A stretch of DNA of 64,000 nt from positions 62,001-126,000 of the forward strand of contig CDROCS010003227.1 of NCBI GenBank assembly GCA_977020255.1, written 5' to 3'. Every line of letters starts with the position of its first letter. Within the stretch, counting starts at the first letter, position 1. This DNA comes from Obrimoposthia wandeli. Taxonomy: Eukaryota. Made by a program: the position numbers and the translations under genes. Under the pieces are notes generated by a model. It was not told where the DNA came from. It made no database searches and was given only the letters and a program-made list of their open reading frames with translations. Below, piece after piece: positions 18,610 to 53,722 of the stretch.

Positions 18610-18639
18610 AGGGGGGAGGGGGAGGGGAGAGGGTGAGGG

Positions 18640-23690: not shown

Positions 23691-24019
23691 ATGATTATTA
23701 AGTAAACTATTCGAAATGTTGTAAAAATCAAGAAATAAGTTAAAAAATATTCATAGTTGATCAACTCATAACTGAAATTTACATTAGTTTAGTATTGTAT
23801 TATATCAATCATATACCTATACGTTTAAATAAAGTTACTTTTTAAAAAAAAAACCATTGATTTTAAGTATTTCATGTTAAACATTGGTTTTAAAGAAGAA
23901 TTTAGCATTGCAATATCATAAATTAGATTTAATTTAACTATTTTTTATTTATTATTTGATAATTAACTTTTATATCGCTTTTAATTATTGAAATATCTAC
24001 AAATTTTGTACAAGTACAC

Positions 24020-31500: not shown

Positions 31501-32849
31501 AAAGAAAATGACCGGCCCTAAGAAAATGATAGATACACCGAAAAGTCTCGCTATCAAGAGGAGTGTAAGCAAAATGATAGCTAATTGTGAAATAGTTAAA
31601 TAGTTATATGAATAAGAAGTTATGTTTTGAAACAAGTCACAAGGAGTGTGATTCGAGTATGAAGGCCTACTTTAGATAGAAATTCTATCGCGGAATATTC
31701 TTCATATGTCCAGTATCGGAGGAGATCGATTGGTCGAAGTTTGTTGATAAGTATTGACACCATCTTCGGCATTTCCAGCAACGTGGGAAGAATGCCATCT
31801 TCCAGGTGACGCTACATAGCAGTATGTCATATATTGCCCTAGTGCCTGCTTCTCCTGCTGTCATCATATCAACTATGCCTGCCCCATTTCTACAGTTGCT
31901 TCTCCTGCATCTGCCGCTGTAACCATATCTGCTGCCCCCTCTACTGCGCCTCATGATTGAGCTCCTGCCACCACCATTATGCCCGCTGCTATGCTCGTTG
32001 CTGTTCCTATTGCTGTTCCACCAACATCGAGTGTTGGTTCAAATGGAGTTGGTAGGGTTCCCACTAGCGCGCTGATACCAGCATCTACCCGCAAGAGAAG
32101 TGTTATGCTCACTTCAGGTAGCTATGCTGCGAAGTTGCCCAGGGTTGATATCGTTAAGCGAAAGCGTGGTATTCGAGGCATGATTGAGACATCGTCATTA
32201 GATGTTTCTAATGACAAAGTAATTGATTTAGTAGTTCCGAAGTCACTTTTGACTACCTTAGGGGTTGCAGTCATCAAGTTCACGACTTGCAAGGTTCAAT
32301 TGAATTTGCTAATTTTGTTGGGGTTTCTATATGAAACTACTGGATAGATCCTCGGATGGAGGCCCCCAACGTGAGTTCTATAGAAGTAGGGCTTGCAGTT
32401 GTTTGTGGCCTACTTAGATTGTGCTTACCTATCTCATTGTATAATCTGAAGGTTTGTTTTTGTTTGTTGTTGTGGGGATGTATGAAGAGCTGTGTATATC
32501 GTACTGGAAAAATTCCCTTAGTGTGGTGCAGTGTATGGAGTAGTTGGTACTAGTTTGATTCCAAAAGCTTTGTTCAAACAACACTGAATAACTGTAGGAA
32601 ACTTTATTCTCTAAAACACACTAAGTTACGTTTCTAAAAAATGACAACAACTAGTCCTAATTCTCTTCACAAACTTTGCACAAATGGGGATGTTGGAATG
32701 TATCGATCTTAATCGGCTTAATAATTTTAGAGGTCCTGATTCGGTACGCGTTAAATTCTATTTTATAATTTAAAATTCAATGTTGATTAATTTTAAATTC
32801 AATACACGTTAATGTCTTTTTATTTCAAACTTATTATAAAATTCAATAT

Positions 32850-34957: not shown

Positions 34958-35262
34958 TGATCACTCCAAAACCAAAATGCCAAAGTGCATAATATTTTAT
35001 TTAACAAGAACTTTTCCCTAATTAAGGAAAGTTCTTAATTAATTAATTCCCATTTTTTCTTTATTTTCATATCTTTTATTTTTTCAATAAATCTTAATGC
35101 TTAAAATATTTAAAAGATATTCCCAACATATAGGGCTCCAGGAAGTAGTTATATACCAACCCCATCCTAGTTAGCGCTCTCACATTGCGTTATCAATGTT
35201 CTGAATTTCAACACTTTTTGTTTTCTTTACAGCATATTAGCTGTACGTTTCCGCGAAGTATT

Positions 35263-36168
35263 TGATGGAGTGATCAAGTTCACAACCTCGCAGCGAACCG
35301 CTCGGCCCCTTACTCTCACACTCGCCTCATAATTCTCTCGAGTTTTTAAGCGGCCGAGATTTCAGCACACGCCGTACGGCAAGGAGTCACCTCCCTCTAG
35401 GCCCAGGAGGACACCTAGTTCTATCCCCGAAAAGCAGATGAGTCACCACATTCGGCCTTGGTAATAACGCTACGATCGACGGATCTATACTTCAATAATG
35501 GCTGTTACACCCACTATCCAGTTCCGGCTTTCAGTGTTAGAGCGCTAGATCGTGGCGGCTCCTTCTTCGCCTCGCTTCTACCGTGTCTCTTCCAACGTCC
35601 TTGCGGACGACGGCATTCGAATCCAGTGGCTCTTTCGTGTAAACGGACCATCGAGCTCGTTCCGGCAAACACTTTTTCTGTAGCGATTTTGATCTCTGCT
35701 AACGATATCCCTAGCTGTCTGAGAATATCAAAACTCTGTTCTTGCCAGTTCCCTCGCCACGATATCGTAATCGCTTGGGTAACGAAGCTCAATGTTGGAT
35801 CCAAGAAAGTGCTGCTGCTTGTCTAATTTCTGCCAATGTGGTTGTCTCGTCTCCAGCAGCTGGGATATGTTCATTATCTCCACTGGTCACTTCAGGAGTG
35901 TTTGTAGTGGGAATTAATCCGATATCATCAGCCACCTTCGTTTCCACGACGGTGTCAAGGTCGACCAAGCCTTCTCGCTCGCGTCAGTACCTAAGGCTCC
36001 GGTTTCCTCCCCTGGGGTCGCTACACTGGTGTATTCAGAGGGACTCACGTCTTCGCCATTCGGTACTAACTGTTCTTCATCCGCATTACCTCCGCTAACG
36101 ATGCCGCCGTTAGTTTCATTGGCCTTTTCGAGAGTGATCAAACCATCTTTCGCTTTCATCTTCAAACC
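35263..36168 (-). mobile_element. ~0.9-kb GC-rich insertion in relic B (retroelement ORF1/gag-like fragment, unassigned)
   Basis: Sits between gaagtattt and cgcactaatcc, which are contiguous in the intact pPolB (~49366-49384). Carries broken minus-strand ORFs 35914-36165 and 35514-35804. Confidence 0.55.
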
Positions 36169-37119
36169 CTCGCACTAATCCTCAATGGGTTTATCAATAT
36201 GATACCTTGTTCAATCAATAAACTTTAGATAAACCCATATGCCGATACGTCTATGTAATATACCGCAATTTGAGAGAAACAACCCATATCTCTCAATCAA
36301 CGTATTTACATTCAATAGGTTTTCTAATGTGCAAACGGATAGGGATATCTTTAAAAATCCCTATGTGGATGTAATTTATAGGATCACAAACCCGAACACT
36401 ACGCAAATCAATCTTCTCCTTTTAATAAATGATGATAACTTTCATTATGACGCTATTCCAAAACTCAATGGGATATGTAATTATAGGAACATATGTGTAT
36501 CTAATGACATCCGGTGTACTTGGTGCCATAAGCGTCTCCATGGGTTCCGGAGACCGATAAGTTACGCCAAGTACGTTCCACTCTGTAGGATGAATTTGGA
36601 TCATTAAACACTTTTATTATCATTAACACCACAGAGAAGCATATTGAGTTTAAGGACTTTTTAAAAAATTCTCCGCCGTTTGCTGTTTACGTGTATTTTT
36701 AGGCTCAGCTAGAGCCACAGGGAATTAATCATAAGATCCAGCTTTCAATCTCGACCGGTATGCTTATGCCTCTTGTTGTAGCCATGACAGGATACACACA
36801 TAATTACTCGGTTTTCACAGGAGGATCTTGTGTGGCATTCTTTTTGCAGAAATTAGAGGACATGGTGAAAGAGGTAGTACTCCCATGGTACAGAAATCAT
36901 GCGATCGAGGTAATACTGCCACTTACACTGGAACAGGTATCGAGTTTCAATGCTGCGAGAATCTGCTACTTGTGTAAGAAGAAGCTAGTGAATAAAGTTT
37001 ACTAGCATGATCACATGATGGGAGAGTACCTCGGAACTGATCATTCGAAATGCAACTTATCAAGGAGAGTGAATCGCTCTTTTCCTATCATTTTTCACAA
37101 TTTGATGGGTTATGACATG

Positions 37120-37717
37120 AGTAGGTAGATGTGTGACTTCTGGAACAAAGCCCCCCCCTGAGGACAAAATTTTTTAAGGTCAAGTTGAGGTCACGGTGAG
37201 GTCATGACCTCATGAGGTCAAGTCAAGTTAAGGTCAAGTTAAGGTCAATGTACTTTAAGGTCAACTTAAGGTCATGACGTCATGAGGTCAAGTTAAGGTC
37301 AAGTTAAGGTCATGATGAGGACAATGTACTTTAAGGTCAAGTTAAGGTCATGATGAGGACAATGTACTTTAAGGTCAACTTAAGGTCATGAGGACAACTT
37401 AAGGTCACGGTGAGGTCAAAAATATTCTATTTTTAGTAACATTCTTTAAATCTATATATCTTTTTATCTAAAGACTGTATTAACACCAATTCAACAAAAT
37501 ACATCTAGTGTGTGTGTGTGTTTTATAATTTAAATTAAATTATCTACTTATAAAATAAAGTATTATATAATTTGATAAATTTATTTAAACTAAATTAAAT
37601 TAAACTAAATTAAACTATCTACTTATAAAATAAAGTATTATATAATTTGATAATCATGTTTAAACGTTCCTATATCTATCTAACAAAGACAGTCACGTAC
37701 TGCATCTATATTGCAAA
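37120..37717 (+). repeat. Left TIR (598 bp) with an AGGTCA-based subterminal array
   Basis: Inverted match to 52798-53535. Confidence 0.95.
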
Positions 37718-37757
37718 TACTTGCATCTTTATGTAATCAATAGTAACATTTATTCTT

Positions 37758-37794
<37 letters not shown>

Positions 37795-37835
37795 AGTGTC
37801 TAACAAAGACACTCTGCATCTATATTGCAATGTAA

Positions 37836-38261
37836 TTACAAAGTTTTTGGTTGGTTTGCTAAAAAGTTTAGTTTTGGACCAAGATAGGCACTAGGATCCT
37901 TTTCAAATGCTTTTGTAAGTTTATCTAATTTTACAAAAATATCAAGCATACCATCCCCTTTTTGTATACCATCCCTTTTTTGCACTCGTTTCTGATTTTG
38001 TATACCTTTCAAATAATCCACATTCTTTTTGTGCTTTATAGCTTTTTTATCAACTCCACCAAACCATCTACCTAAAAGATTTGCTGCCATCATATGAATA
38101 CCCAAACCCTCCATGATTTTCTTTTTACTCATAGTCTTTTTACTCATAGTCTTTTTAACCTTAGTCTTTAATGATTTAGTAGGTTTTTTAGTCATTTTCA
38201 TAATAAATATTAAAGTATCACTATTGTTTATATATATATAAAATAATACAAATAAAGACAC
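37836..38261 (-). CDS. Lys-rich basic protein, possible virion core precursor
   Basis: KKTMSKK repeats, a WFGG motif and QKGDG/EGLG glycine motifs reminiscent of adenain cleavage sites. Confidence 0.55.
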   Translation of the reverse strand: MSLFVLFYIYINNSDTLIFIMKMTKKPTKSLKTKVKKTMSKKTMSKKKIMEGLGIHMMAANLLGRWFGGVDKKAIKHKKNVDYLKGIQNQKRVQKRDGIQKGDGMLDIFVKLDKLTKAFEKDPSAYLGPKLNFLANQPKTL

Positions 38262-38270
38262 AAAAATTTA

Positions 38271-38660
38271 TTAGTCAACTCTAACAGCATCAATTATTTT
38301 CCATATCGGAGTTTCCAATCCACTGGGCCCGATCTTGCATCCTTGAATTCTGATTGAGAGAATCCATTCTAGCTTAGGAGGAGGTGCTTCGTATATTGTT
38401 CCATTCTCATGCTTGAAAGTGGCAGTTGATCCTTTGATTACGAATTTGTTTTCCTGAAGCGCATAGTTGATTCCGAATTGAGTCAAGAGAATATTGATTC
38501 TCTCTTTATCCACAGAAGTCAAATTTGATATTTCAAAATCAAATTTAAGCGGCTCGATGTTGACAGGAAAAATAAAATTATAGTTATGAGCTTTCTTCAA
38601 AAAGTGCATCTCATATCCATAATATGTATGCATAGGTTGATATAGCTTTTCGAAATTCAT
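38271..38660 (-). CDS. Hypothetical Polinton protein (129 aa)
   Basis: Clean ATG-initiated ORF with protein-like composition in a gene-dense element. Confidence 0.6.
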   Translation of the reverse strand: MNFEKLYQPMHTYYGYEMHFLKKAHNYNFIFPVNIEPLKFDFEISNLTSVDKERINILLTQFGINYALQENKFVIKGSTATFKHENGTIYEAPPPKLEWILSIRIQGCKIGPSGLETPIWKIIDAVRVD

Positions 38661-38773
38661 ATTGACAATTATAAATTGAAATATTCAATTGTTTATCCTC
38701 CAAAGCTCGATTCTAATTGGTCGATATTCTTGTTTATGAAAATCGATTAGTCTCAATTGGTTAACATTCTTGT

Positions 38774-38998
38774 TTATCGTCTAGTATTAGTCATATCCTT
38801 AAAGGGCTCACGTTCTTCGGTTACGCGCGTAGGATACTGTGGTATTGTTTGACTTGATGGATTAATATTTTCTCTCTGATTATTTCTATTATAATTCATA
38901 TTAGAATATAAATTACTACCAGAACCTATATATGTACTAGCTCTACTTTCATTATTTTGATTATTTTGATTATCCATTTTCAATAAAATCATTATCAA
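38774..38998 (-). CDS. Short Asn/Gln-rich hypothetical ORF
   Basis: ORF track only; low complexity. Confidence 0.3.
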   Translation of the reverse strand: MIMILLKMDNQNNQNNESRASTYIGSGSNLYSNMNYNRNNQRENINPSSQTIPQYPTRVTEEREPFKDMTNTRR

Positions 38999-39129
38999 AA
39001 TATTGTTTATACTAAGACAAAGACATCACATGTCATTACTTGCGAAAAGTTGCAAATAGTTGTAATGTGGTCTAAAAATATATTTTCACTTACTATATAA
39101 GCTAGACAATTTCATCATTCAATTTTGTT

Positions 39130-40131
39130 ATGACTACTAAATTTATTGCACATTATGTTTCAGAAAACGGAGAACTCACCATTAGACGACGGCGTTTTGA
39201 TAATATTTCAAGAATAAATGAAAATATGATATATGAAGAAAGAAGATTAGAATCGTTACAAGCAAAGTTTACTGGTTTAGCCGATAAGAAAGCTTTAGCA
39301 AAAGCAGGATTTTACAAGCACGATGATTCGAAAGATAATGTAAAGTGTATTTACTGTCAGGGAGGAATATCAGGATGGGAGTACTATCTGAAACCAATGA
39401 AACAGCATCAGCTATTTTTCCCAAGATGCCCGTTTGTTTTGAAAATGAATGTTTCAAACGTACCAATAATTGATTCCAGCACCACCCAAATTGATTTTGA
39501 TACAACTCCAATGGATAAAGTAGTTATTGTGCGCAATAATTATTCTAATGATATTGAAATACCTACATTATCGATTTTCGATCATGTATATATTTGGAAT
39601 GATTCTTATCGATGTTGTTTCTGTTGGAAAGCAGTACCCCGACTTGACCTTATTGATACTATGCCCGAAAGAATCTTTCATACTCGAGATTGTAAAGCAT
39701 CTAGTATGGGAATCAAGAACGGATGTATTGTTGAATATCATATTAGTAATGATGAAATTGATGCTCAGATGGAAACTCGTCAAATAGTTTTGCTGAAACG
39801 TGATTACAGTCATGATAGAATCAAAGCCGTTTTAGTTAATAGGTTTAAAACATTCGGTAACAAATATGATTCTATATATGAGTTTATAACGGATTTAAGG
39901 TCTTTAGAAATAAAATCTGAACCAAAACATCGGATAAATTATCTCGAGTACCTCTTACCAAATCCCGAATGTGTTGTTTGCATGAGCGATGCGATTTCCG
40001 TGGCATTTTTACCATGCGGTCACTTAAACACGTGTATTAAATGTTCAGATCGTTTTATTACATGTCCATATTGCAAGACAATTATTATTAGACGAGTAAG
40101 AAATATTAGATTTCATAGCATAGGCAATTAA
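39130..40131 (+). CDS. iap: Inhibitor of apoptosis (BIR + degenerate BIR + RING)
   Basis: BIR: LAKAGFY..DNVKCIYC-x16-H-x6-C with exact spacing. Second BIR-like CCFC..H..C. C-terminal IAP-type RING CVVC-x11-CGH-x3-C-x2-C-x6-CPYC. TACTATATAAGC at 39091. Confidence 0.93.
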   Translation: MTTKFIAHYVSENGELTIRRRRFDNISRINENMIYEERRLESLQAKFTGLADKKALAKAGFYKHDDSKDNVKCIYCQGGISGWEYYLKPMKQHQLFFPRCPFVLKMNVSNVPIIDSSTTQIDFDTTPMDKVVIVRNNYSNDIEIPTLSIFDHVYIWNDSYRCCFCWKAVPRLDLIDTMPERIFHTRDCKASSMGIKNGCIVEYHISNDEIDAQMETRQIVLLKRDYSHDRIKAVLVNRFKTFGNKYDSIYEFITDLRSLEIKSEPKHRINYLEYLLPNPECVVCMSDAISVAFLPCGHLNTCIKCSDRFITCPYCKTIIIRRVRNIRFHSIGN

Positions 40132-40194
40132 GCAAATCTAAAAATAGATGTTCAAATTGTATAAATAGAAGAAATCAGTTTATAATAATCAGAA

Positions 40195-40742
40195 ATGCTA
40201 CTTCACAATATCAAATTAGTGAATATTAATTACAAGGGAATGGTTGTAAGTAACATTCAACACTTACCATTTCGGACTTCGAAGCCTCATCAGTATCGAC
40301 TCAAGTGTGAAGGTTACACTATTATCATTTTCAAATCTGGTAATTTATTTTTACATTTATATATAATTATAATTTAGGTACATGCAGAATAATGGGTTGC
40401 AAAACAGTGCTGGATGAAAGCAGTCTTCCTTTTGATATAAAAATCGAAAGAATCCAATCAATCAGTCTCAGCAGCAATCTAGAAACATCAATAAACCTAA
40501 ACAAGATGAGCAAGAGTATGGGATCAGAAGCTGTTTACGAGCCAGAAATCTTCCCGGGACTTCGATACGTCAAATACAATCCCTTATGCGTGAACATTTT
40601 TGTTAGCGGGAAGATTATGATACTCGGTGTTAAATCTTTAAACTATGAGTATCTGATTGAATGTATTTTGTTTAATATAGATCTTCACACTTGTGTTATT
40701 TATTTCCTAAACCAAATAGTTTTAAAAATAGATTTCTCTTAG
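40195..40742 (+). CDS. Divergent TATA-binding-protein-like protein, two exons (40195-40339, 40378-40742), 169 aa
   Basis: Removing a 38-nt GT-AG intron gives IIIFKSGTCRIMGCK in repeat 1 and VYEPEIFPGLRY..VNIFVSGKIMILGVK in repeat 2, matching the TBP motifs LIFxSGK..TGAK and YEPE.FPGL. Confidence 0.85.
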
Positions 40743-41237
40743 AGACAAAGACATCACATGTCATTACTTGCAAATAGTTGCAAATCGTTGTAATGTTGCA
40801 AAAGTTGTAATGTGGTCTAAAAATAGATTTATCTTAGAGACAAAGACATCACATGTCATTACTTGCAAATAGTTGCAAACGTTGTAATGTTGCAAATAGT
40901 TGTGGTCTAAAAATAGATTTTTCATGGGTTATAAACAATATTTGATTTGCTTTATCATAAAATGGATGAAATTATTGAATGTAAAGAGGTTCAGGATGCA
41001 TTAAAAGATCTTGCTTCAGTTATTCTCAATGCTTTATTAGGAAAAATAATCATGAGTAATATTTATATGTAGTTTATTTAACTCTTTAGGTTACGTCATC
41101 AACTACATTTACATGAGATGTTAAGTACAATGGAAAGGTTGAATAATACTCCAATCAAATCATATGATGAAACTGATGCACCAATGAAATCAAACCTTGT
41201 TTAATATATAAGACTAAATTGACTCGAAATTGATAAA

Positions 41238-42020
41238 ATGGAGAAAATCAATTCAGCACCAGAAGCAACATCATCGCTAGTAACATCATCACTACCAGCA
41301 ATATCATCGCCAACAACATCATCGCCAGCAACATCGCCAGCAACATCATCACCACCAGCAACAACAACAACAGTTATAAGAAGAGAAGAAACTATTGATG
41401 AAGTGACGATAGAAGAAGAAATTATTATAGATCCAATTATTGAAGATGAGAGACGGATAGATTTTTTAAATGCTTTGGCTTTTATGGAACCCACAATAGC
41501 TCATGCTTCGAGTATGGAAATGAACCACTTGACCCATCTTTTTGATAGTTTGTTTAGTGCTAGATTTACTCAACTTAATGTAGAAAAGTTAAACAAAACA
41601 GCGATGAGTGAGATTTTAGTAAATCAATTATATATTGGTAATTATCGAGATGGGTTTGATGAAACTAATCTTTTGAATTCCAATTTCACTCATGTAATCA
41701 ATACATCTATACTTGATAAAATATCTTATAAGAAATTAAAATATACTTCTGTCTTTGTAAACTCAAAATTAGGAGAAACAATAATGAAGTATTATAAACA
41801 GACTAATAATATAATTAAAGAAACTATCGAAAATGGTGGTAAGATTTTAGTATGTGGTCATTATGGTAGTTTACATGCTGCTTGCATTGTTATTGCATTT
41901 TTATCTCATTCGATTGGTGTTACTGCTGCTTCGAATCTTGTTAAAGCTAAACGGACTATTGCTGCTCCTAATGAAGCTATGCTTCATCAAATACGTATTT
42001 TTAATCGTTATCATGTGTAA
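41238..42020 (+). CDS. Ser/Thr/Pro-rich N-terminus plus dual-specificity-phosphatase-like domain, probably catalytically dead
   Basis: MSEILVNQLYIGN, FTHVIN and KRTIAAPNEAMLHQI match the DSP fold; the P-loop reads ILVCGHYGSLHA instead of VHCxxGxSRS. Confidence 0.8.
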   Translation: MEKINSAPEATSSLVTSSLPAISSPTTSSPATSPATSSPPATTTTVIRREETIDEVTIEEEIIIDPIIEDERRIDFLNALAFMEPTIAHASSMEMNHLTHLFDSLFSARFTQLNVEKLNKTAMSEILVNQLYIGNYRDGFDETNLLNSNFTHVINTSILDKISYKKLKYTSVFVNSKLGETIMKYYKQTNNIIKETIENGGKILVCGHYGSLHAACIVIAFLSHSIGVTAASNLVKAKRTIAAPNEAMLHQIRIFNRYHV

Positions 42021-42193
42021 ATTTTATTCGTCTTTATCTTTAATCAGTGTTTTTATTAATCAGTGTCTTTATTAGTCAGTGTCTTTATTAGTCAGTGTTT
42101 TTAGTGTCTTTATTAGTCAGTGTATTTATTAACCAATCAGATTTCAGATGTATAGTATATAATCAGATTACTTTTTACTTCTTCATCATCATT

Positions 42194-42475
42194 ATGTCTA
42201 CTCCAAACTATTTCAAGCAAGATGTTGACAAGGCGGTGAAGAGCTTCATCTCGAAGAATGTCATAGAACCAGATGTCCTGCAACTCATTGATGTCTCAAA
42301 TCTACCCCTGGAGGAGCACGTAAGAAGAATGGTGCACGACAAGGCAGTCAATCTTCTCATTCAGGGATACAATCAGAAGAAACTCGCAAACAAAGAAAAG
42401 AAAAGGAGCTTTTTCTACGAGAAGAGTTTTTTATTGTTTGTTGCTGGATGTTTCGTAATAAAATATTTTAAATAG
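42194..42475 (+). CDS. Small hypothetical protein with a C-terminal hydrophobic anchor
   Basis: MSTPNYFKQ...SFLLFVAGCFVIKYFK; codon style distinct from flanking AT-rich DNA. Confidence 0.55.
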   Translation: MSTPNYFKQDVDKAVKSFISKNVIEPDVLQLIDVSNLPLEEHVRRMVHDKAVNLLIQGYNQKKLANKEKKRSFFYEKSFLLFVAGCFVIKYFK

Positions 42476-42518
42476 TTTTGTCTTATAAACATTATCCCGA
42501 TAATCTAATATTTTTAAT

Positions 42519-43169
42519 ATGAACTTAAAAAATAATTCAGTTTTTCAGATTGTAGGTCCTAGTGGTAGTGGGAAAACACACTTTGTATGTAAATTACTGC
42601 AAAATAATAAATACTTTAGTTTTAAGTTTAATAAAATATACTGGCATCAGGGAGGAGATGGAGAAGCTGGTTTAACCAGTAAAGAGTTTAAGAAAATCAA
42701 AAATATAAAAGTCATTAATGGATTCGATGATAATTGGTCTGAGCGATTACAACGACATGATGTTATTGTTATTGATGATTTATATCAAGAAGCAAATAAA
42801 GAGAGTGATTTCAATAATTTATTCACTAAAATAGCACGACATCGGGAAGTAACTGTTATTTTCATCACACAAAATCTATTTCATCAAGGAGGGAACCATA
42901 GAACTCGTAATTTAAATGTACATTACCTTGTTCTCTTCAAGAATCCACGTGATCAGACGGTTGTTGATTTTGTTTCAAGACAAGCTTACCCGAATAATAG
43001 AAAGTTTTTAATAGATTCATTTCAAGATGCAACTACTATTCCTCATGGATACATTTTTATTGATTTTACTCAAGATTGTCCCGATGACTTTAGAGTTAGA
43101 ACTGATGTATTCAATCCATCGGGAATAACCGTCTATAAACAAACAAAGAAACCAGTTTTGAGAAGATGA
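42519..43169 (+). CDS. A32/FtsK-like DNA packaging ATPase
   Basis: Walker A GPSGSGKT, Walker B VIVIDD, RHREVTVIFITQNLF. Confidence 0.95.
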   Translation: MNLKNNSVFQIVGPSGSGKTHFVCKLLQNNKYFSFKFNKIYWHQGGDGEAGLTSKEFKKIKNIKVINGFDDNWSERLQRHDVIVIDDLYQEANKESDFNNLFTKIARHREVTVIFITQNLFHQGGNHRTRNLNVHYLVLFKNPRDQTVVDFVSRQAYPNNRKFLIDSFQDATTIPHGYIFIDFTQDCPDDFRVRTDVFNPSGITVYKQTKKPVLRR

Positions 43170-43588
43170 ATTTTAAAAAGGAAACTGTTAAACCCGAAGT
43201 TAAAAAATTGATTAAATCAGTTTTAAGTGCAAGGAAAATGGTTGCTCAAAAATCGAAAAGAACTGTTGTTAAGAAATCTAGGAGTATTGCCTATTTCAAT
43301 TCTCTCATGCGTGCACCTGCTATTCGCCGCCCAGCTATTCTTAAATCATTCCCTACTTTTGTAATTGATGATTTACTTAATATGATACAGAAAATAGTTT
43401 CTGGTAAAATAATTGTCAAGGCTAACCTGAATCGGCATAAGAAACCTCTACTTGCTTTGTTTCATGCCAAAACACGAATCGGTAAACGTAAGTTGCTTTA
43501 TAAGAAAAGTGGTGGATTTTTAGGATTTCTCGTACCAATTATTAGCTCAATAGTTGGTGCACTTGCTAGTAGACTAATAAACCGATGA
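43166..43588 (+). CDS. Basic core-like precursor with a C-terminal amphipathic peptide (adenovirus pX-like)
   Basis: Lys/Arg-rich; KKSGG|FLGFLVPIISSIVGALA resembles the GG|(F/I)LP.LIPII motif after an adenain site. Confidence 0.6.
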   Translation: MNFKKETVKPEVKKLIKSVLSARKMVAQKSKRTVVKKSRSIAYFNSLMRAPAIRRPAILKSFPTFVIDDLLNMIQKIVSGKIIVKANLNRHKKPLLALFHAKTRIGKRKLLYKKSGGFLGFLVPIISSIVGALASRLINR

Positions 43589-43685
43589 TTATAAACATAA
43601 ATTCGAATCAATAATATGAATTTATATATGGGATCACTTCCATCTATTCCTAAATTCAATTTAAAAATCAAATCGTCTTGCTGCA

Positions 43686-44713
43686 ATGGAGAAAATATGG
43701 TTCGATCCAAGTCATCCCGTCGGTTACACAGGGGTTTCAAAATTAGCAAAAGAGTCAAAGAAGACAAAGCAGGAAACTCAGGCGTGGTTGAGAAATCAAT
43801 TAGCTTACAGCTTAAACAAACCAATGAGACGTCGGTTTCCAACGAGATCATACAAAACGAGCGGCCCGAATGATTTATGGCAAGCAGATTTGATGGAAAT
43901 GATTCCGTATGCGAGTATTAACGACGGATATCGATATATTTTAACTTGTGTTGATGTCTTTAGCAGATTCGCGCGAGCTATTCCATTAAAGTCCAAGTCT
44001 GGTACTGATGTTTTAACCGCAATGAAGCTTTTGATTAAAGAAATAAAACCAAGAAATTTCCAAACGGATAGTGGAAAGGAGTTTTATAATAAACATGTTG
44101 AAACACTATTGAAAAACATAATATTAATCATTACTCAGTATTTTCCCAATATAAAGCCGCTTTAGTTGAACGTTTTAATCGAACATTGAGAGATCGTTTG
44201 AAAAAGTATTTCACAAAGCAGGGAAATAAGTCCTGGGTTACTGTTTTACCTCAAATAATACATGCATACAATCATAGTGAACACTCATCATTAGACCGAA
44301 AGAGACCCGTTGATGTTACAGATGAGAATGCTATGGAAATTTGGCAACACCGTAACCAAAGTCAAGTTGCGCGGAAACCCAAGTATAAAGTTGGTGATTA
44401 TGTACGTATTTCTCAAATTAGTACTACTCCTTTTATAAAGAATTTCAAAGAGAATTGGAGCGATGAAGTATTTCGTATAACTAAAATTGATAATAAACGT
44501 ATGCCGGTAATGTATTTCATTGAGGATGAAACCAATAATGTAATCACGGGTAAATTTTATCATGAGGAATTACAAGTCTTGCCTGAGAAACCAAATGTAT
44601 ATAGAATCCAAGAAATTTTAGAGACAAAAGGTAGAGGAAAGCATAAACAATATCATGTTAAGTGGCATGGATATACTGAACCTAGTTGGATATTAGCTTC
44701 TCAAATAGAATGA
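43686..44713 (+). pseudogene. int: Retroviral-type DDE integrase with C-terminal chromodomain; one frameshift
   Basis: WQADL, VDVFSRF, QTDSGKEF; restoring one A in the run at 44112-44116 gives KKHNINHYS..VERFNRTL; QYHVKWHGY chromodomain. Confidence 0.93.
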
Positions 44714-45738
44714 ACTCAATGTATGTTGTATTACCAAGTAATGGTTCACCATTAACTCAGCCGAATAATACTGCTAATAGTTTTAGTATTGATTATCAAA
44801 GCTCAATCAATTTACCTGGGCATTGGGAAGCTGCTCTGACGGAATTTTCTTTCAATTACTCTCCTCTATCCATTAAAGGAGGGTCAATTATAGATTATGT
44901 TGTGGAGAAAAGAATAAAAACTGAAGTTGAAGCTGGTGTGAAAATGAAACATGGAGAATTTTTCGTCAAGTATTTAACTCCAATTAATAGTAAATATGTT
45001 ATTTACCTTAGCGGCGAAAATAAAATTTGTATAACTCGCACTACGGGACAAGCTTTCAATTTAGAAATTGATAATAAAAGTTTAGCATTAAGTTACGGTA
45101 TGAAAGAAGCTCCTATTGAAAGTATGTTTTATGAATCGGAATTACCAAATCAAAAATATGATTTACCGACATTAAAGTTAAAGATGCATCATTATCATCA
45201 AGAGGATGTACGTGAGCAGTATGCATTCGAAAATGATTGCTTATTTTCCAATGTTGAAAGTCTTTGTCAATATTTCATGAAAAATATTGATAATATATTT
45301 GAAAGCTTTTATGTTGAAAAGGAGATAATTGAGTTTAAATTGAAACCACATGTAAAAGAAATAAATATGGATAAAAATTTAGCTACAATTATTGGATTCA
45401 ATGAAAACAGTTTTAAAAATCTTAATAAAGTTTTCCGAGCATCTAATCGGGCAAAGCTAAGTAATGCGTATAATCAGATTTATATTTACACAAGTATTAC
45501 TGAACCGATATTTGTGGGTGGAAATAAACTTCCATTAATAAAATCTATTTGGGTTCAACAGGAAAAGCACAAGTATGGAGATATTATACATATCCCAATT
45601 GAAAATCCAATGTATATTCCTGTGAGTTCTTCTTCTATAAACAATATTGAAGTTAACATTCGGGATGATTCAGGAAGATTAATTAAATTTTCATTTGGAG
45701 CTAAAACAAGTTTAACAATACATTTTAGAAAAATATGA
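44710..45738 (+). CDS. Minor capsid protein (penton-like)
   Basis: MYVVLPSN..PNNTANSF..WEAALTE at the N-terminus; IYIYTSITEP..P.YIPV..INNIEVNIRD..TIHFR at the C-terminus. Confidence 0.85.
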   Translation: MNSMYVVLPSNGSPLTQPNNTANSFSIDYQSSINLPGHWEAALTEFSFNYSPLSIKGGSIIDYVVEKRIKTEVEAGVKMKHGEFFVKYLTPINSKYVIYLSGENKICITRTTGQAFNLEIDNKSLALSYGMKEAPIESMFYESELPNQKYDLPTLKLKMHHYHQEDVREQYAFENDCLFSNVESLCQYFMKNIDNIFESFYVEKEIIEFKLKPHVKEINMDKNLATIIGFNENSFKNLNKVFRASNRAKLSNAYNQIYIYTSITEPIFVGGNKLPLIKSIWVQQEKHKYGDIIHIPIENPMYIPVSSSSINNIEVNIRDDSGRLIKFSFGAKTSLTIHFRKI

Positions 45739-46062
45739 TTGATTCAAGTATAATCGATGCGTATAGTAAACCGATGCAAGGAGGTGATTTGCCTTATTTT
45801 GCCGGAAAACAGTATGGATCAGGATGGATGAAGGTTTTTGGTCGCTTTTGCTAATGTTGGATCAAAATACTTGTCTGGTGATGAGAAATTTCTTCCCACA
45901 CTAAAGGATGCAGCCTTGGATCAAGTGAATGAAATTTCACCAAGTCTAGCTGAATTTTTGAAAAAGAAAACTCAAAAGGGAAGTGGTTATAAACGTAAGA
46001 AAACATCTAAAGCATCGGGTATAAACAAACGTTTGAAACTAGGTGGAACAATTTTTAAGTAA
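45735..46062 (+). pseudogene. Small Gly-motif virion protein with a probable 1-nt frameshift near 45845
   Basis: MQGGDLPYFAGKQYGSGW..., continuing in ORF 45838 to QKGSGYKRK..GGTIFK; lies between mCP and MCP. Confidence 0.55.
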
Positions 46063-47291
46063 TGAGTTGTGCTAAAACTGAATTGTGTATATTCGATAAA
46101 CCTATACCTCAGGTTGTGGTTGATAGTGCTAGTTTTGAAGAAATATTTCCGACAAATACGGTTAACGGGACATCTTCTCCGGATTTAGAATTCAATATTA
46201 ATGGATCCAATACTCAATATCTTGATTTGAATGATAGTTTATTTCTCGTTAAATTGAAAGTTACAAAGGAAGGTGGAGGTGATTTGGATGATGGTATGGA
46301 TATCAAATCAGCTAATTACATGTTGCATACTCTTTTCAAGGATGTGATTCTCAGTCTCAATAATGTGAAAGTTGAGGGAAATAATACTAGTTACACCCAT
46401 AAAGCAATGATTGAAACATTGTTGAATTACGGTAATGATACGAAATTGATTAATCTTGATGCAATTGGGTTTGACAATGATGAAAAAAGAAGAATTGCTT
46501 CGATTGCAAAGTCTAAAGTATTGTCACTTTGTGGGAGTCTCCATTTGGATTTCTTTAAGCAACCAAAGTATCTTTTACCCGGTGTAAGTGCACATATTCG
46601 AATGAAGAGAAATCCAGTAGGTTTTAGTGTTGTTTGCGCTGATACTATTAAAACCGCAATTGAGATTACGGAAGCAAAACTGATGGTTCGACGAGTAAAG
46701 GTGGAACCATCTGTACTTGTTGCACATCGAATGGGGTTGGAGAAGCAAAATGCATGTTATCCTATTAGAAAAACTAATCTTGTTTCTCACGCTATCCCTA
46801 CGGGAGCACTATCTTATTACAAGGATCAGATTTTTGGTGATATGCAACTTCCAAACTTTGTTTTAATTGCTTTCCAAAACACGTCTACTTATGGAGGTGA
46901 GTCTAAAAATGAGGTTTCTCAATTTGGACACATGAATGTGAGTTCAATTAAACTTGCACGAAATATTGATTATCAAGAATCTTATACGAATGACTTTGAA
47001 AACGATGATTATGTGTTTTCTTATGTGCAATCTTTAATTAGAAATCTTGGTCATTTGGATAAGGATGCTAATATTGGAATTTCAATGACTGATTTCAAGG
47101 ACAAGTATACACTGTTCACATTTGTTCTCTCTCCTGATTTCGATATTAATCAAGCTCAAATCCCTAAACAGGGAAATTTGAAAGTAGAAATCAAGTTTTC
47201 AAAAGCACTTGAACACCCTACTAATATTATAATCTATGGAGTATTCGATTCTGAGGTTCAAATTACCAAGGGAGGAACAGTACTAGTATAA
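46062..47291 (+). CDS. Major capsid protein (double jelly-roll)
   Basis: MSCAKTELCIF..LEFNING..YLDLNDS and YTLFTFVLSPD..GNLKVEIKFSKAL..IIYGVFD; intact 409 aa. Confidence 0.9.
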   Translation: MSCAKTELCIFDKPIPQVVVDSASFEEIFPTNTVNGTSSPDLEFNINGSNTQYLDLNDSLFLVKLKVTKEGGGDLDDGMDIKSANYMLHTLFKDVILSLNNVKVEGNNTSYTHKAMIETLLNYGNDTKLINLDAIGFDNDEKRRIASIAKSKVLSLCGSLHLDFFKQPKYLLPGVSAHIRMKRNPVGFSVVCADTIKTAIEITEAKLMVRRVKVEPSVLVAHRMGLEKQNACYPIRKTNLVSHAIPTGALSYYKDQIFGDMQLPNFVLIAFQNTSTYGGESKNEVSQFGHMNVSSIKLARNIDYQESYTNDFENDDYVFSYVQSLIRNLGHLDKDANIGISMTDFKDKYTLFTFVLSPDFDINQAQIPKQGNLKVEIKFSKALEHPTNIIIYGVFDSEVQITKGGTVLV

Positions 47292-47322
47292 ACAGAATGA
47301 AAACAATAAAGAAGATATATAA

Positions 47323-47700
47323 ATGAAGTAAGTCAGTTTGAATTTATTAATTAATATATATTCTAGTTCGGACGAGATAACAAAAAGCGGAAGAAAACTA
47401 CTCGGTTCGCGTTTCAATGGAGTCTACAGCCTTGATAACATCCCCTCTTTGACTCGACTAGGTGGATATGTAATCAATACACATTCATCTAATTTGCGTG
47501 GTGAACATTGGATTGCAATACATGTTAAAGAAAATGAAATCTTTGTTTTTGACCCCTTTGGGATATATTACCCTTCTAAATTAGTATCTACAGTACTTTA
47601 TTCTGGAAAGAAAGTACATTTTAGTAAGAAACATTATCAAAATGTTTTAACACAGTCATGTGGACAACTCTGTCTGCTTTGGTTAAAGCATAAACAATAG
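47323..47700 (+). CDS. Adenain-like cysteine protease, two exons (47323-47327, 47367-47700), 112 aa
   Basis: GEHW, FDPFG and Q..TQSCG catalytic motifs; the ATG is supplied by splicing out a 39-nt GTAAGT...TTCTAG intron, giving MNSDEI. Confidence 0.88.
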
Positions 47701-47736
47701 ATATAAACAATATCAAATAAAATTATTGCTATAAAA

Positions 47737-48246
47737 ATGTCTGTTTATTTTATTGATTTTGAAGCTTTTATTGATAATAATACTGAATTTGTAATAAAAG
47801 AACTATGTATAATGGATGTGGATGCAATCTTCTATCCTAAACATTATGTTTTTAAAATGCAACCCATATGGGACATGATGAATAGAAAATCAAGAAAAAT
47901 AAATAGATATCTCATTAAGCATTACCATCGACTAAAACTAGTTGATGGTAATAGTTATTTCAAGATACAAGAAATAACTGAGGAAATAAAACGTTGTTGT
48001 AATGTATCCAAATCAATTTTCTATGTTTTGGATGAAAATAATGGAGCTAAAATAAAGACAATCAATAAATATTTTCCTGAATTTAGAGTGATAAATTACT
48101 CGAAAACATTAAAACAATTAAATCCATCAAATATCAATTGTCCATATATTAAACATGGCGAGCATTGTGCATACAAGAAATGCTTTGCAGCTAGTTTGGA
48201 TTATTTAAATATTAATGAAAATTCAACTACTCACATCTGTCAGTAA
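47737..48246 (+). CDS. DnaQ/DEDD-like exonuclease-fold accessory protein with a C-terminal Cys/His cluster
   Basis: FIDFEAF..FVIKELCI, HY.F, C-terminal CP..HGEHCA..KC. Confidence 0.6.
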   Translation: MSVYFIDFEAFIDNNTEFVIKELCIMDVDAIFYPKHYVFKMQPIWDMMNRKSRKINRYLIKHYHRLKLVDGNSYFKIQEITEEIKRCCNVSKSIFYVLDENNGAKIKTINKYFPEFRVINYSKTLKQLNPSNINCPYIKHGEHCAYKKCFAASLDYLNINENSTTHICQ

Positions 48247-48377
48247 ACTATTCTGTTTTAAATTAATCTGGTTGGTTTAAATAATGAATGAATCTGATTG
48301 GCTTAATACTAGCTCGAAAATAGTATATAAGCAAGCATCAATCAACAAATAATCCCCTATTATAAACGAAATTGAAA

Positions 48378-50856
48378 ATGGTAAGTTTATTGTTATTTTT
48401 TCTGCTAATTTATTTCTTTCTAGAATTGCAATATGAACAAAGAATTATGCTTCGAGGAGAGTCACAAGGAATGTGACGGAAAGATGAAGAGCTACTTTGG
48501 ACAGAAGTTCAACGGACAACAATTATACGTATGTCCAGTATGTCTCTCCGCGGAGGAGATTGATTGGCCGGAGTTTGTGGCGCGTCATCGCGTCCATCTT
48601 CGTCATTTCCAGCAACGTGGCAAGAAGGCCATCTTTCAGAATAGATCTGCTACTATTTCTCGGGTTGCTGGTCCAGTTGTTGCTGCTTCGCCAATTGCTG
48701 CCCCAATTTCTGCTACTGTTCCAGTTACTAGTCCAGTTGCTTCGCCACCATCTGCTGCACCAATGGTTCCAGTTATGCCTCCTCCAGTTGGTATGATCCC
48801 CGCGCCGTTACCAGCATCTACCCGCAAGAGAAGTGTTATGCCCACTTCAGGTAGCTTTGTTGCGAAGTTTTCCAAAGTTAATGCTGTTAAGCGTAAGACT
48901 AGTCTTCGGGGCACGATTGAGACATTGTCATTAGATGTTTCTAATGACAATCTCATCGATTTACAAGTTCCTGTATCCCTTTTGACTAGCTTAAGGGACA
49001 CAGTCAGCAAGTTTGCGACTTGCAAGGTTCAATTCGGGGTGCGTGTTGAATTTTCCAATATTGGAGAAACACGCGCTTGGAAATTTTCCAATAGAGGGCT
49101 CCCCATAGATGAGGGGGTTATAGATGCGGGAGTAGATGGGATCAACAAGAAGATTGAGAATTATTCTCAAAGTAGCAGTAATTGAGTAGTGAACCGCTTC
49201 CTGGAGATTTCGTTTGTTGTGACTAAAACAACGACAATGCACTATTTCCAGGGAAGTAGTTATATACCTACTCCATCTGAGTTAGCACTCTCACATTGCG
49301 TCATCAATGTGCAGAACTCAAACGCTTTTTGCTTCCTTTACAGTATCTTATCTGTACTTTTCCGCGAAGTATTTCGCTCTAATCCTCATCGGGTTAATCA
49401 ATATGATGCCTTTTTGAGTCAATTAGCTTTTGATGAGAATGAGATGCCGATGCGTCTATGTAATATACCGCGATTTGAGAGAAAGAATCCATCTCTCTCA
49501 ATCAACGTATTTACATTCAATAGGTTCTCTAATGTGCAAACAGATGGGGATATCTTCAAAAATCCCTATGTGGATGTCATTTACAGGACCACAAACCCGG
49601 ACGCTAAGCCAATCAATCTTCTCCTTTTAGAAAATAATGATAATTTTCATTATGTCGGTATTCCTAAACTCAATAGGCTGCTTCATTATAGGAACAGAGG
49701 TGTATCTAATCGCATCCAGTGTACTTGGTGCCATAAGTGTCTTCATGGCTTCCGGAGACCAATAAGTTACGCCAAACACGTTCCACTCTGTAGGATGAAT
49801 TTAGATCATACAACGCTTTATTCAATGCCTACAGAGAAGCATATTGAGTTTAAGGACTTTTCAAAAACGATTTCTCCGCCTTTTGCTGTTTACGCGGCTT
49901 TTGAGGCTGTGCTGCCGCCACATGGAATCCACCATCAGATTCAGCTTCCAATCTCGGCCGGTATGCTCATGTCTCCCGTTGCAGCCACGAGAGGGTATAC
50001 ACATGATTACTCGGTCTTTACCGGATAATCTTGTGTGGTATCCTTTTTGCAGAAATTAGAGGACTTGGCGAAAGAGGTTGTACTCCCATGGTACAAAAAG
50101 CATGCGATCGAGGTGATGCGACAACTCACACAGGAACAGGTATCGAGTTTCAATGCAGCAAGAATCTGTTATCTGTGTAAGAAGAAACTCGCAAACAAAG
50201 TTCGAGATCACGATCACATGACTGGCGAATACCTGGGAGCAGCGCATACGAAATGCAACTTATCAAGGAGAATCAATCGATCTTTTCCCGTCATTTTTCA
50301 CAATCTTATGGGTTATGACATGCACCATATATTGAAGCACGCACTATGCAAGTTTCCCGACTGGAATGTATCTGTTATACCTCAATCAACAGAGAAATTC
50401 CAGGCTATGATGGTGTATATTGGAGGAGTCTGTATACGTTTCATCGATTCCCTTCAATTTTTGAACAGCAGCTTAGAAAAACTTGTGGAAAACCTGGGTG
50501 TGACTCCTCTTACACATTCGGTCTTCCCGCAACATCTGGTGAGCGCCAAGGGAATCTTCCCATACGATATGGCAGTATCAGAGACTGCTCTTCGCGCAAT
50601 CACCAGCTTACCGCCAAAGTGGGATGAGAAGATCAAGCCAGCACAATATGAAATGGCGAAGATGGTCTGGACTCAGAGCGGCTGCTCATCGCTCTGGGAC
50701 TATATGCTGGTCTATATGAAGATGGACGTCTACCTTCTAGCAGACGTGTTTACAGCATTCCGGACCAAGGCCATTGCTGACGATGGATTGGAGCCACTCA
50801 ATTTCTTCTCCATCCCTGGTTTGTATTTTACTAATTTTTTCTAATTTTAGACACTA

Positions 50857-50910
<54 letters not shown>

Positions 50911-52698
50911 AAGAATAAATGTAGTACTTGTTACTATTGATTGCATAAAGATGCAGGTTTTTGCAATATAGATGCAGCACGTCTTTGTAAGTATTGATGA
51001 TTGTCTTTGTTAGACACATGTGACTATCTTTGTAGGTATTGATTACTGTCTTTGTTAGACACACACGTGACTGTCTTTGTAGGTATTGGTGACTGTCTTT
51101 GTTAGATACTCACACACATATATACATGTATAAGAATAAATGTTACTATTGATTACATAAAGATGCAAGTATTTGCAATATAGATACGTGACCGTCTTTG
51201 TTAGATAGATGATTTTCACAATGATTTTCACAATGATTTTCACAATGATTTTAATAAATGATTTTATTTCCAGGACTGACTTTCGCGAGTGCTTTCAAAT
51301 CCCTGCTTCGTCCGGCTTCTTCTTCTGCTCCCGTTGTGCGAGTCGAGCTAATACAGGATCCAGAAATGTACCGACTCTTCCGGTCTGGGATTCGCGGGGG
51401 TATGACATTTGTTAATGAACACCGCGTTGACGCCATCAATGGTACAGAACTTTTGTACATTGATGTAAATAATTTGTACGGGTGGGCTATGTCCCAGTTT
51501 TACCTTGTGGTAACTTTTCCTGGGTGACTGATCGGTTAGAGTTGGGGAATATTATTTCCAGCTTAAAATCAGTAGATTTATCCTGTAGTCGCTTCGCTCA
51601 TTTATTGGAAATAGATTTATCCATTCCCTTCGAGCTTCATAATAAATTCGACGATCTTCCCCTTGCTCCCATTAAACAGCGTCCACCAGGGTGTAAGACT
51701 GAAAAATTGTTATTAACGCATTACCCTAAGAAACAATATGTTGTGTATTCTAGATTGCTACAAATGTACGTTAGACTTGGTGCTAAGGTAGATTTTGTAT
51801 ATAGAGCAATACAGTTTGAACAAACTAATGTTTTTTCAAAATATATTGAGGATAATTCTCTCAAAAGAGCTGCGGCTACAACAGATTTCGAGCGGGATTA
51901 TTATAAACTGAAGGTGAATTCTTTATTTGGAAAACTCATTGAGAATCTGATGAAAAGAATTAACCTCCGGATTTGTAATACTCCACAGAAGCTGGTTACC
52001 TATTGCAGTAAAGCCCACTTTCGTAGGACAATCGAAATCGATACGGATCTTATTGCAGTTTTACTGGATAAGGAAAATATTGTTTTGGATCGTCCTAGTT
52101 ACATGGGCCAGGCGGTATTAGATTTAAGCAAACTTCGTATGTATGAGCTACAATATGAGCAGTTGGAGAAATATCGAGTTCAATTTAACTGCGACATTAG
52201 AATTATAGCAGGTGACACTGATAGCTTTTTCTTGAAGTGTAATAATGTCAATGTTCAAGAATCACTGTTACCTGCTATGATTGCTGATGGACTGTTGGAT
52301 ACCTCGAAATTTCCAAAAACCCATCCGCTTTATACGACGCTTAATACAGCGATAGGAAAATTTAAAGATGAGAGTAAGGGATTATTTAGTTATAGGCAAG
52401 GGATTTTTCTACGACCAAAATCATATAGCCTAGAGACTACAGAAGGTGAATCTCAGATGAGAGCGAAAGGTATTAGTCTCCGACAGACGAGTATTAGGCA
52501 CTCTAATTACTTAGCCGTATATGAGAGTGGCGTTAGCGAGCGTGTACAACAACAACGTATAAGCTCGCTAAATCATCAACTTTTTACTGTAAGGTTAAGT
52601 AAAATTGCCTTAAGCAGTAGTGATGATAAGCGCAAGTGGGTGGAGAAAACCGTTCAGTCGCCTATGGTCACTTTTTATACCCGGACGAGGTTGTATAA
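48378..52698 (+). pseudogene. pPolB: Protein-primed family B DNA polymerase with an EndoVII-like insert; 2 introns, 2 nonsense codons, 2 frameshifts
   Basis: Zn finger; INVQN..FCFLYSIL; ExoI-like YAAFE; RDHDHMTGEYLGAAH..CN; FHNLMGYD; KGIFPYD; DVYLLADVF; YIDVNNLYG; KLKVNSLFGK; GDTDS; GKFKDE; LRPKSY. Introns 48381-48423 and 50819-51273; stops 49183-49185 and 50026-50028; frameshifts ~51498 and ~52647. Confidence 0.95.
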
Positions 52699-52797
52699 AC
52701 TTTTTATATGTGTTGTACATATTTTTATTCTCCTTTGTGATTTTAAGGAATATATGTGTTTGAAATACTTGTCTTTATTTACATAAATTTGCGGGTT

Positions 52798-53535
52798 TTT
52801 GCAATATAGATGCAGTACGTGACTGTCTTTGTTAGATAGATATAGGAACGTTTAAACATGATTATCAAATTATATAATACTTTATTTTATAAGTAGATAG
52901 TTTAATTTAGTTTAATTTAATTTAGTTTAAATAAATTTATCAAATTATATAATACTTTATTTTATAAGTAGATAATTTAATTTAAATTATAAAACACACA
53001 CACACACTAGATGTATTTTGTTGAATTGGTGTTAATACAGTCTTTAGATAAAAAGATATATAGATTTAAAGAATGTTACTAAAAATAGAATATTTTTGAC
53101 CTCACCGTGACCTTAAGTTGTCCTCATGACGTCATGACCTTAACTTGACCTTAAAGTACATTGTCCTAATGACGTCATGACCTTAAAGTACATTGACCTT
53201 AACTTGACCTTAACTTGACTTGACCTCATGAGGTCATGACCTACATCTTGTCCTCACCGTGACCTTAAGTTGTCCTCATGACGTCATGACCTTAACTTGA
53301 CCTTAAAGTACATTGTCCTCATGACGTCATGACCTTAACTTGACCTTAAAGGACATTGACCTTAACTTGACCTTAACTTGACTTGACCTCATGAGGTCAT
53401 GGCCTACATCTTGTCCTCACCGTGACCTTAAGTTGACCTCATGAGGTCATGTCCTCACCGTGACCTCAACTTGACCTTAAAAAAATTTGTCCTCAGGGGG
53501 GGGGCTTTGTTCCAGAAGTCACACATCTACCTACT
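52798..53535 (-). repeat. Right TIR (738 bp, with extra subterminal repeat units)
   Basis: Inverted match to 37120-37717. Confidence 0.95.
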
Positions 53536-53722
53536 GACATGCATACTGAAACATGCGTTGAGTCAATTTTCGCACTGGAGTGTCTCTGTCATACATCAAT
53601 CAACAGAGAAATTTCAGGCTATAATGGTGCATATTAGAGGAGTCTGTATTCGGTTTATAGATTCATTGCAGTTTTTGAATAGTGGGCTTGAAAAAATTGT
53701 TGAAAACTTAGGCGCCATATAA
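53536..53722 (+). pseudogene. Continuation of pPolB relic B after the Polinton insertion; truncated
   Basis: ILKHALSQFSHWSVSVIHQSTEKFQAIMVHIRGVCIRFIDSLQFLNSGLEKIVENLG continues directly from FHNLMGYDM at 37119. Confidence 0.92.

Follow-up and report, generated by a model that had tools for sequence, protein, structure and literature searches.

Predicted spliceosomal introns in the core genes of a Polinton/Maverick element, including a protease whose start codon appears to be supplied by splicing

Core genes of a Polinton/Maverick element from Obrimoposthia wandeli appear to be interrupted by spliceosomal introns, and the start codon of its virion-maturation protease is predicted to lie in a first exon of five coding nucleotides. 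The element, a copy of what is called family A here, occupies positions 37120-53535 of the window, the 64,000-nucleotide stretch at positions 62,001 to 126,000 of contig CDROCS010003227.1 (assembly GCA_977020255.1) to which all coordinates refer. An earlier sequence-only reading of this stretch had proposed four GT-AG introns in the element, and all four lie where it placed them, with the lengths it gave, each restoring a reading frame or a motif. Comparative support for the protease, polymerase (pPolB) and TBP-like stretches as spliceosomal introns, with splicing predicted, is strong. The gene structures concerned are as follows:

40195..40339, + strand, TBP-like exon 1, 48 codons, TATA-like box at -35; continuous in the relatives L112 and L126
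40340..40377, + strand, TBP-like intron, 38 nt, phase 1, family-A-specific
40378..40742, + strand, TBP-like exon 2 (Pfam TBP, E 7e-13)
47323..47327, + strand, protease micro first exon, coding part ATGAA, TATA-like box at -36
47328..47366, + strand, protease intron, 39 nt, phase 2, position conserved across the clade
47367..47700, + strand, adenovirus-type cysteine protease exon 2, no Met (Pfam Peptidase_C5, E 4e-4, just below the curated cut-off)
48378..48380, + strand, pPolB first exon, coding part ATG only, TATA-like box at -54
48381..48423, + strand, pPolB intron 1, 43 nt (42 nt in 4 of 20 loci), phase 0, family-A-specific
48424..50818, + strand, pPolB exon 2, stops at 49183-85 and 50026-28, in-frame ATG at 48433
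50819..51273, + strand, pPolB intron 2, 455 nt here and 80-549 nt among copies, phase 1
51274..52690, + strand, pPolB exon 3 (polymerase motifs), frameshift within 51473-51527, 3' end approximate

Two general lines of evidence support reading these stretches as U2-type introns: firstly, they have GT..AG ends, AT-rich interiors and a host-like size; secondly, their removal leaves a colinear conserved protein. Comparison across copies and comparison with host introns had both been proposed as checks by the sequence-only reading. Intron positions are held in 30/30 loci for the TBP-like gene, 20/20 for the protease, 20/20 for pPolB intron 1 and 30/30 for pPolB intron 2, these being the top-scoring loci with the window's own locus included in each set. 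The introns are also host-sized: in host chaperonin and myosin genes, 12 of the 17 homology-supported introns of up to 130 nt measure 40-51 nt and are AT-rich, which places element introns of 38-43 nt at the low edge of host sizes. The four introns are unlike each other in sequence, and the near-identical introns at unrelated sites that would define introners were not seen, as judged on these introns with no genome-wide search made with their sequences. A relaxed scan of the window element adds three further intron candidates that lack homology support. As a separate observation on host chaperonins, the same genome (L197-L206 and further matches) carries about 19 long intronless open reading frames (ORFs) of the Cpn60/TCP1 family, of around 550 amino acids and on different contigs, beside intron-bearing CCT genes. 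For one host chaperonin the best named matches of full length come from flatworms (65-68%), narrowly above other animals (62-66%), with partial records from a fish and a moth in the two top-scoring rows; the host is thus probably a flatworm.

The protease intron (18% GC) follows directly on ATGAA, and its retention in the window leaves Met-Lys-stop. Metagenomic relatives provide the comparison (80 loci kept from 246, with a protease included in six). All four close relatives concerned (L112, L115, L123 and L126, at 47-55% amino acid identity) share the arrangement of ATG and two bases, GT, 37-41 nt, AG, and T at the same codon; the intron is missing from both distant proteases, of which L138 starts MNT and L177 is open across the site. 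Family B, a second Polinton family in the same genome with a protease 61-65% identical, has the same intron in 19 of 20 loci and a decayed acceptor in the remaining one. A single micro-exon would be weak evidence because chance produces some such pattern in 2-8% of shuffles; the protease arrangement in its exact form is reproduced by 0.06-0.24% of shuffles per locus. Across the six protease intron interiors, none of the 15 pairs beats shuffles at the 5% level, i.e. they are saturated, and position, phase and size kept while the interior has turned over are, on this comparison, the mark of an old working intron. In the polymerase tree the six carriers of the intron are dispersed among several branches within a clade of 17 rows, which has support of 85/87 (99/96 for the node enclosing it), and the intron is shared over approximately 1.2-1.7 substitutions per site of polymerase distance. 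Since it stands at the same base in every close relative with a visible protease, it likely dates to the ancestor of the clade. Among viral contigs, the protease alignment matched no relative in 102 pattern matches and the polymerase alignment matched one distant contig.

The proposal that start codons depend on splicing fares differently from gene to gene. For the protease the prediction is well supported: intron position is conserved, and exon 2 offers no Met, thus no alternative in-frame start, before the catalytic His in 5/5 sequences (the window and four relatives). For pPolB it is likely and not forced, given the in-frame ATG at 48433, three codons into exon 2. In the TBP-like gene the intron comes after a normal 48-codon exon. 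Two other arrangements for the protease were considered and rejected: fusion of capsid and protease by way of the protease donor, because the capsid frame has already stopped ahead of that donor in 6/6 cases, and a spliced-leader start, because the intron is phase 2. A 9-codon ORF at 47297-47326, its stop overlapping the protease ATG, is probably located 5' of the transcription start to which the TATA-like box at -36 points.

The long second intron of pPolB (27% GC) interrupts FSIP-G-LTFASAF exactly at the Gly codon, and the frame stops inside it if it is retained. A Pro-Gly-Leu-type motif stands exactly at the junction in nearly all of 120 homologs among the matches listed, and of the 52 closest homologs 49 align without a gap on either side. 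The intron is missing from 15/15 close-clade contigs that span the site and from 150 family-B matches, and is therefore a family-A gain. Its length in 30 loci runs from 212 to 549 nt, with GT..AG ends in 30/30 and all three frame classes represented (10, 8 and 12 loci). An exon-only query taken from a decayed copy recovered 29 loci, five with the donor only and four with no anchor; the intron was present in each of the 20 measurable ones, so that no intronless family-A copy was found among them. Four older copies (95-97% exon identity) have an intron 2 of 80-167 nt that consists of the same ends and a minisatellite with no terminal block, while the left subterminal block of the element occurs inside intron 2 once in one copy and twice in the window. 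The intron has, on the evidence of these copies, grown from a short one by uptake of the element's own terminal DNA (repeat expansion). In the window it contains AATAAA at 50914, 51135 and 51253 and an internal AG at 50849.

The TBP-like intron (8% GC) splits the motif FKSG-x-CRIMG at the Gly codon and halts the frame within itself when retained. The motif is uninterrupted in L112, L126 and family B, a distribution that marks the intron as a family-A gain. Intron turnover is visible more widely in the Polinton clade as compared here. A strict short-intron scan, which by design recovers only two of the four window introns, gave 18 candidates in 86 kb of close relatives versus 6 in 289 kb of distant ones (some overlapping). 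Further short pPolB introns (42-45 nt) were confirmed by homology in L121, L123, L127, L128 and L129, with one position common to L121, L128 and L129, another to L121, L127, L128 and L129, and neither in the related L112, L122, L125 and L126. Of 20 candidates from a relaxed scan, five doubtful ones were retested and rejected (0/52 supporting proteins); candidates in L125, L126 and a second one in L123, with 1-3 of 52 supporting proteins, were not counted.

Family B (loci L235-L298), whose matched genes are about 65-74% identical to those of family A at the nucleotide level, is the more abundant of the two, with 24,000-32,000 first-look candidates (not copy numbers). It carries the protease intron only, its protease ATG overlaps the capsid stop, and its pPolB lies on the opposite strand; in family A, one strand carries both pPolB and the capsid genes. 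Three of the four introns, being absent from so abundant a family, are therefore not needed for the Polinton life cycle. A candidate intron in the 5' untranslated region was also noted upstream of family-B pPolB.

The explanation that we regard as probable is that these are ordinary introns, constitutively spliced by the host spliceosome, on which the element would then depend. Each gene would be transcribed from its own TATA promoter: TATA-like boxes stand 28-60 nt ahead of 11 of 17 assigned starts, compared with a 9% background, and include those of both micro-exon ATGs (at -36 and -54) and of the TBP-like gene (at -35), so gene-specific TATA promoters are probable. Transcription of the protease gene would start a few bases upstream of ATGAA, which splicing would join to the Met-free exon 2; for pPolB, the ATG-only exon would contribute the first codon and the sequence past the long intron the catalytic half. 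The protease intron would be ancestral to the clade and the other three likely later gains of family A, one of them subsequently enlarged by repeat expansion. Once gained, such introns could not be skipped, and the element would rely on nuclear splicing without the introns acting as a switch.

Selection on coding variants bears directly on this explanation. Across 106 loci, the ratio of non-synonymous to synonymous polymorphism (pN/pS) is 0.30 for shared variants versus 0.62 for singletons (Fisher p 5e-9); some of these loci overlap the same copy, which would raise the shared value and makes the comparison conservative. Shared-variant pN/pS is 0.32 in pPolB exon 2 and 0.19 in exon 3, so both halves are constrained. 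Family A is under purifying selection although the window copy is broken, and a lineage that replicates with a polymerase under selection must remove intron 2. Several considerations nonetheless weigh on the other side. Splicing of all four introns is a prediction from DNA; the family-A loci scored for introns are the best-scoring of more than 1,000 candidates, so their invariance says little; only four close relatives have a visible protease, and support for the clade that holds all carriers of its intron is moderate (85/87); and introns of 38-39 nt fall at the very bottom of the well-supported host range or slightly under it, the shortest member of that range being 40 nt (with one 32-nt candidate; n=17). 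Family A might also depend for its movement on family B, mostly intron-poor, acting in trans; the pN/pS pattern speaks against this.

The sequence-only reading had seen in these introns a possible regulatory switch, which we consider unlikely, if still the best placed of the alternatives to constitutive splicing. Under regulation, retention of the start-codon introns (through, e.g., chromatin or PIWI-interacting RNA (piRNA) state, or cell type) would keep protease and polymerase off in the majority of cells, splicing would start replication and maturation, and the AATAAA block of intron 2 might end transcripts early to yield a terminal-protein/exonuclease product without the polymerase domain. 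In keeping with this, a retained intron ends the protease at codon 3 and leaves the polymerase preceded by an out-of-frame ORF that overlaps it, intron 2 holds three AATAAA, and the protease intron is the only one kept across the clade while the others turn over; planarian Polintons are moreover described as piRNA-repressed and desilenced on differentiation (PMC8532177). Such a gate is, however, hypothetical. The donor sites are of a strong type (GTAAGT), and loss of an intron so close behind a start codon is difficult in any case. Three of the four introns have no counterpart in family B or the relatives, the AATAAA block is missing from older copies, and AATAAA itself turns up frequently in AT-rich DNA. 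A similarly low probability attaches to its extension to an animal Polinton clade with host-style gene architecture and ongoing intron gain and loss, in which the ancient protease intron would be a splice gate between a silent or transposon-only state and virion production, and an intronic poly(A) block of family A would uncouple terminal-protein supply from the polymerase.

The weakest of the four cases is pPolB intron 1 (21% GC), which follows directly on the ATG and is family-A-specific, and whose retention leaves an overlapping out-of-frame ORF of 32 codons. In 7/7 intronless relatives with a visible start, and in family B, the protein begins with Met, 1-6 residues, Cys, 5-6 residues and Cys. 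Two of these relatives start Met-Asn-Cys, and the window's exon 2 starts Asn-Cys, upstream of the internal Met at 48433. The pPolB start codon is likely to depend on splicing. It is decidedly improbable that this start is not cis-spliced, either because the acceptor at 48423 takes a host trans-spliced leader ending in AUG or because translation begins within exon 2, at ATG 48433. This internal ATG is preserved in 38/38 loci, intron 1 is absent from all relatives, and the phase-0 junction would give the same protein start with a leader ending in AUG, as flatworm leaders do (PMC12582326), for which reason cis- and trans-splicing are not separable from DNA here. On the other hand, a strong donor sits directly after ATG 48378, itself intact in 37/37 loci, a TATA-like box lies 54 nt upstream of it as in relatives, an internal start drops the conserved first Cys of the C-x5/6-C motif, neither route is applicable to the phase-2 protease, and the flatworm placement of the host is only inferred. 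Ordinary cis-splicing is preferred over a last reading, hardly credible, in which dead copies have been hit by AT-rich insertions or introners and intronless helpers supply the working proteins: the window copy is indeed broken, Polinton-like elements are frequent targets of introners after their integration (PMC11957031) and family B lacks three of the four introns, but the interruptions occur in all measurable copies and are not private to the window copy, their interiors are mutually unrelated, unlike an introner family, the protease intron spans the polymerase distance given above and is carried by family B too, and shared variants are under purifying selection.

The predicted spliceosomal introns in Polinton core genes contrast with the published intronless description, in what is a known element type with an intron-bearing clade. 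Core genes are described as intronless in vertebrate Polintons (PMC8097293, citing Kapitonov and Jurka 2006), and in nematode Polintons introns are reported only in cargo genes (10.1101/2022.07.12.499685). The present element shares with Polinton/Maverick elements (Orthopolintovirales) the pPolB, rve integrase, ATPase, adenovirus-type protease, inverted repeats, 6-bp duplication and a size of about 16 kb, together with major and minor capsid proteins that are predicted here; it differs in that two core genes are split, with the protease intron conserved across the clade, and in the location of family-A pPolB on the strand of the capsid genes. Spliceosomal introns in Polinton core genes are not described in the available parts of PMC10748475, PMC8502044, PMC11296320, PMC8532177, PMC11161782, PMC5718144 and 10.1101/2025.04.19.649669, and among the papers listed by literature searches no title or abstract opening describes them; Repbase notes or supplements may already do so.

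Three known systems offer partial parallels. Dinoflagellate maverick-polinton-like elements likewise contain spliceosomal-type introns, in the form of introners mostly inserted after integration; those are young, repeated, intron-generating transposons, whereas the introns here have unrelated interiors, are in all measurable copies and include one ancient position (PMC11957031). Adenoviruses, a related group of dsDNA viruses, also use host splicing for core genes: the available part of the THEV splice map has pTP spliced from two exons and the IVa2 start codon formed across a junction. Adenoviral units are long and alternatively spliced with shared leaders, in contrast to the apparent promoter per gene and minimal intron found here, and a micro first exon for the protease is not described in that part of the map (PMC11304566). 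Cryptophyte Polinton-like viruses too have introns within their genomes, but these are group I introns of 309-376 nt in a small accessory gene, self-splicing, not GT-AG and not spliceosome-dependent, unlike those here (PMC12220804).

These introns matter for annotation, since Polinton surveys take intronless core ORFs as the sign of an intact element, and large scans for endogenous viruses leave introns out of account (PMC8097293; 10.1101/2025.04.19.649669); Polintons with such introns would be scored as broken or protease-less. Separately, the public ORF call P0002 appears to begin inside such an intron. A conserved spliceosomal intron would imply nuclear transcription by RNA polymerase II of a virion-maturation gene throughout the history of the clade. 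The protease junction would serve as a marker that tells real expression from genomic background, making it directly testable whether and when animal Polintons express virion genes, and thousands of candidate copies of differing age mean that the genome records stepwise intron growth.

The element at 37120-53535 is identified as a Polinton by its sequence features: it measures 16.4 kb, within the usual 15-20 kb, and has terminal inverted repeats, AG..CT ends (AGTAG...CTACT) and a flanking 6-bp target duplication, GACATG, at 37114-37119 and 53536-53541. The polymerase matches Pfam DNA_pol_B_2 (E 3e-11) and has 239 homologs, and the integrase matches rve although frameshifted in this copy. A packaging ATPase (Pox_A32) accompanies the protease, whose Peptidase_C5 match is weak (20.6 bits against a curated cut-off of 21.3) and whose residues GEHW, D, Q and C are invariant in the alignment. 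The capsid proteins have no Pfam match and are predicted from Atlas similarity (0.98 to double jelly-roll clusters, 0.95 to a minor-capsid cluster), with both recognition values under the tool's threshold. The usual description of intronless core ORFs, which is not a strict criterion, does not hold. The remaining features are:

37120..53535, full-length Polinton/Maverick, family A, ends AGTAG...CTACT, 6-bp duplication
37120..37736, left terminal inverted repeat; the interior of the long intron derives from the adjacent block 37674-37814
39130..40131, + strand, BIR and RING (IAP-like) accessory gene (Pfam BIR, E 2e-13; zf-C3HC4_3)
41238..42020, + strand, dual-specificity phosphatase-like accessory gene (Pfam DSPc, E 6e-13)
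42519..43169, + strand, packaging ATPase (Pfam Pox_A32, E 4e-6), 76-79% identity to relatives
43686..44713, + strand, retroviral-type integrase, frameshifted near 44102-44165 (Pfam rve, E 3e-12)
44710..45738, + strand, predicted minor capsid protein (Atlas 0.95 to the Sputnik V18/19 cluster; position in relatives)
46062..47291, + strand, predicted double jelly-roll major capsid protein (Atlas 0.98 to PF21738 clusters)
47737..48246, + strand, conserved ORF, function unassigned, 30-43% identity with relatives
52779..53535, right terminal inverted repeat

The window copy is broken, by the integrase frameshift and by the two stops and one frameshift in pPolB; neither this nor the in-frame ATG at 48433 is mentioned in the sequence-only reading. 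The three pPolB breaks are private or nearly so (69/69, 66/69 and 47/47 covering loci differ from the window copy). Family A itself is probably recently active. Three DNA searches with it in the 1.35-Gb genome gave 1,084-2,288 first-look candidates each, of which 40 were scored, all 99-100% identical. Its IAP-like (BIR-RING) and dual-specificity-phosphatase-like accessory genes (window 39130-42020) are without a match in the fetched relatives. A further GT..AG stretch of 34 nt (41056-41089), spotted by eye in a small ORF starting at 40962, is a candidate with no homolog for comparison.

The element was inserted into an older, decayed pPolB copy (71-85% identical), pieces of which lie on both sides (31606-31805, 32068-32301, 35137-35263, 36170-37119 and 53564-53707). 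No close family was found for this copy, the best others being 83-84%; it stops short of intron 2, and its start region is too decayed for scoring of intron 1. A second element with Polinton-type ends (AGTAG..CTACT), at window 18440-30973, is 12.5 kb long and near-palindromic, with a 6-bp duplication, ATCATG. Full of tandem arrays of about 17% GC and with only short ORFs, it is probably a non-autonomous Polinton. Finally, a related repeat with a ACAAAGACA core recurs at 37660-37830, 39015-39068, 40743-40921, 50847-51210 and 52779-52841, that is, in the terminal repeats, two intergenic spacers and the long pPolB intron, and is possibly a regulatory motif.

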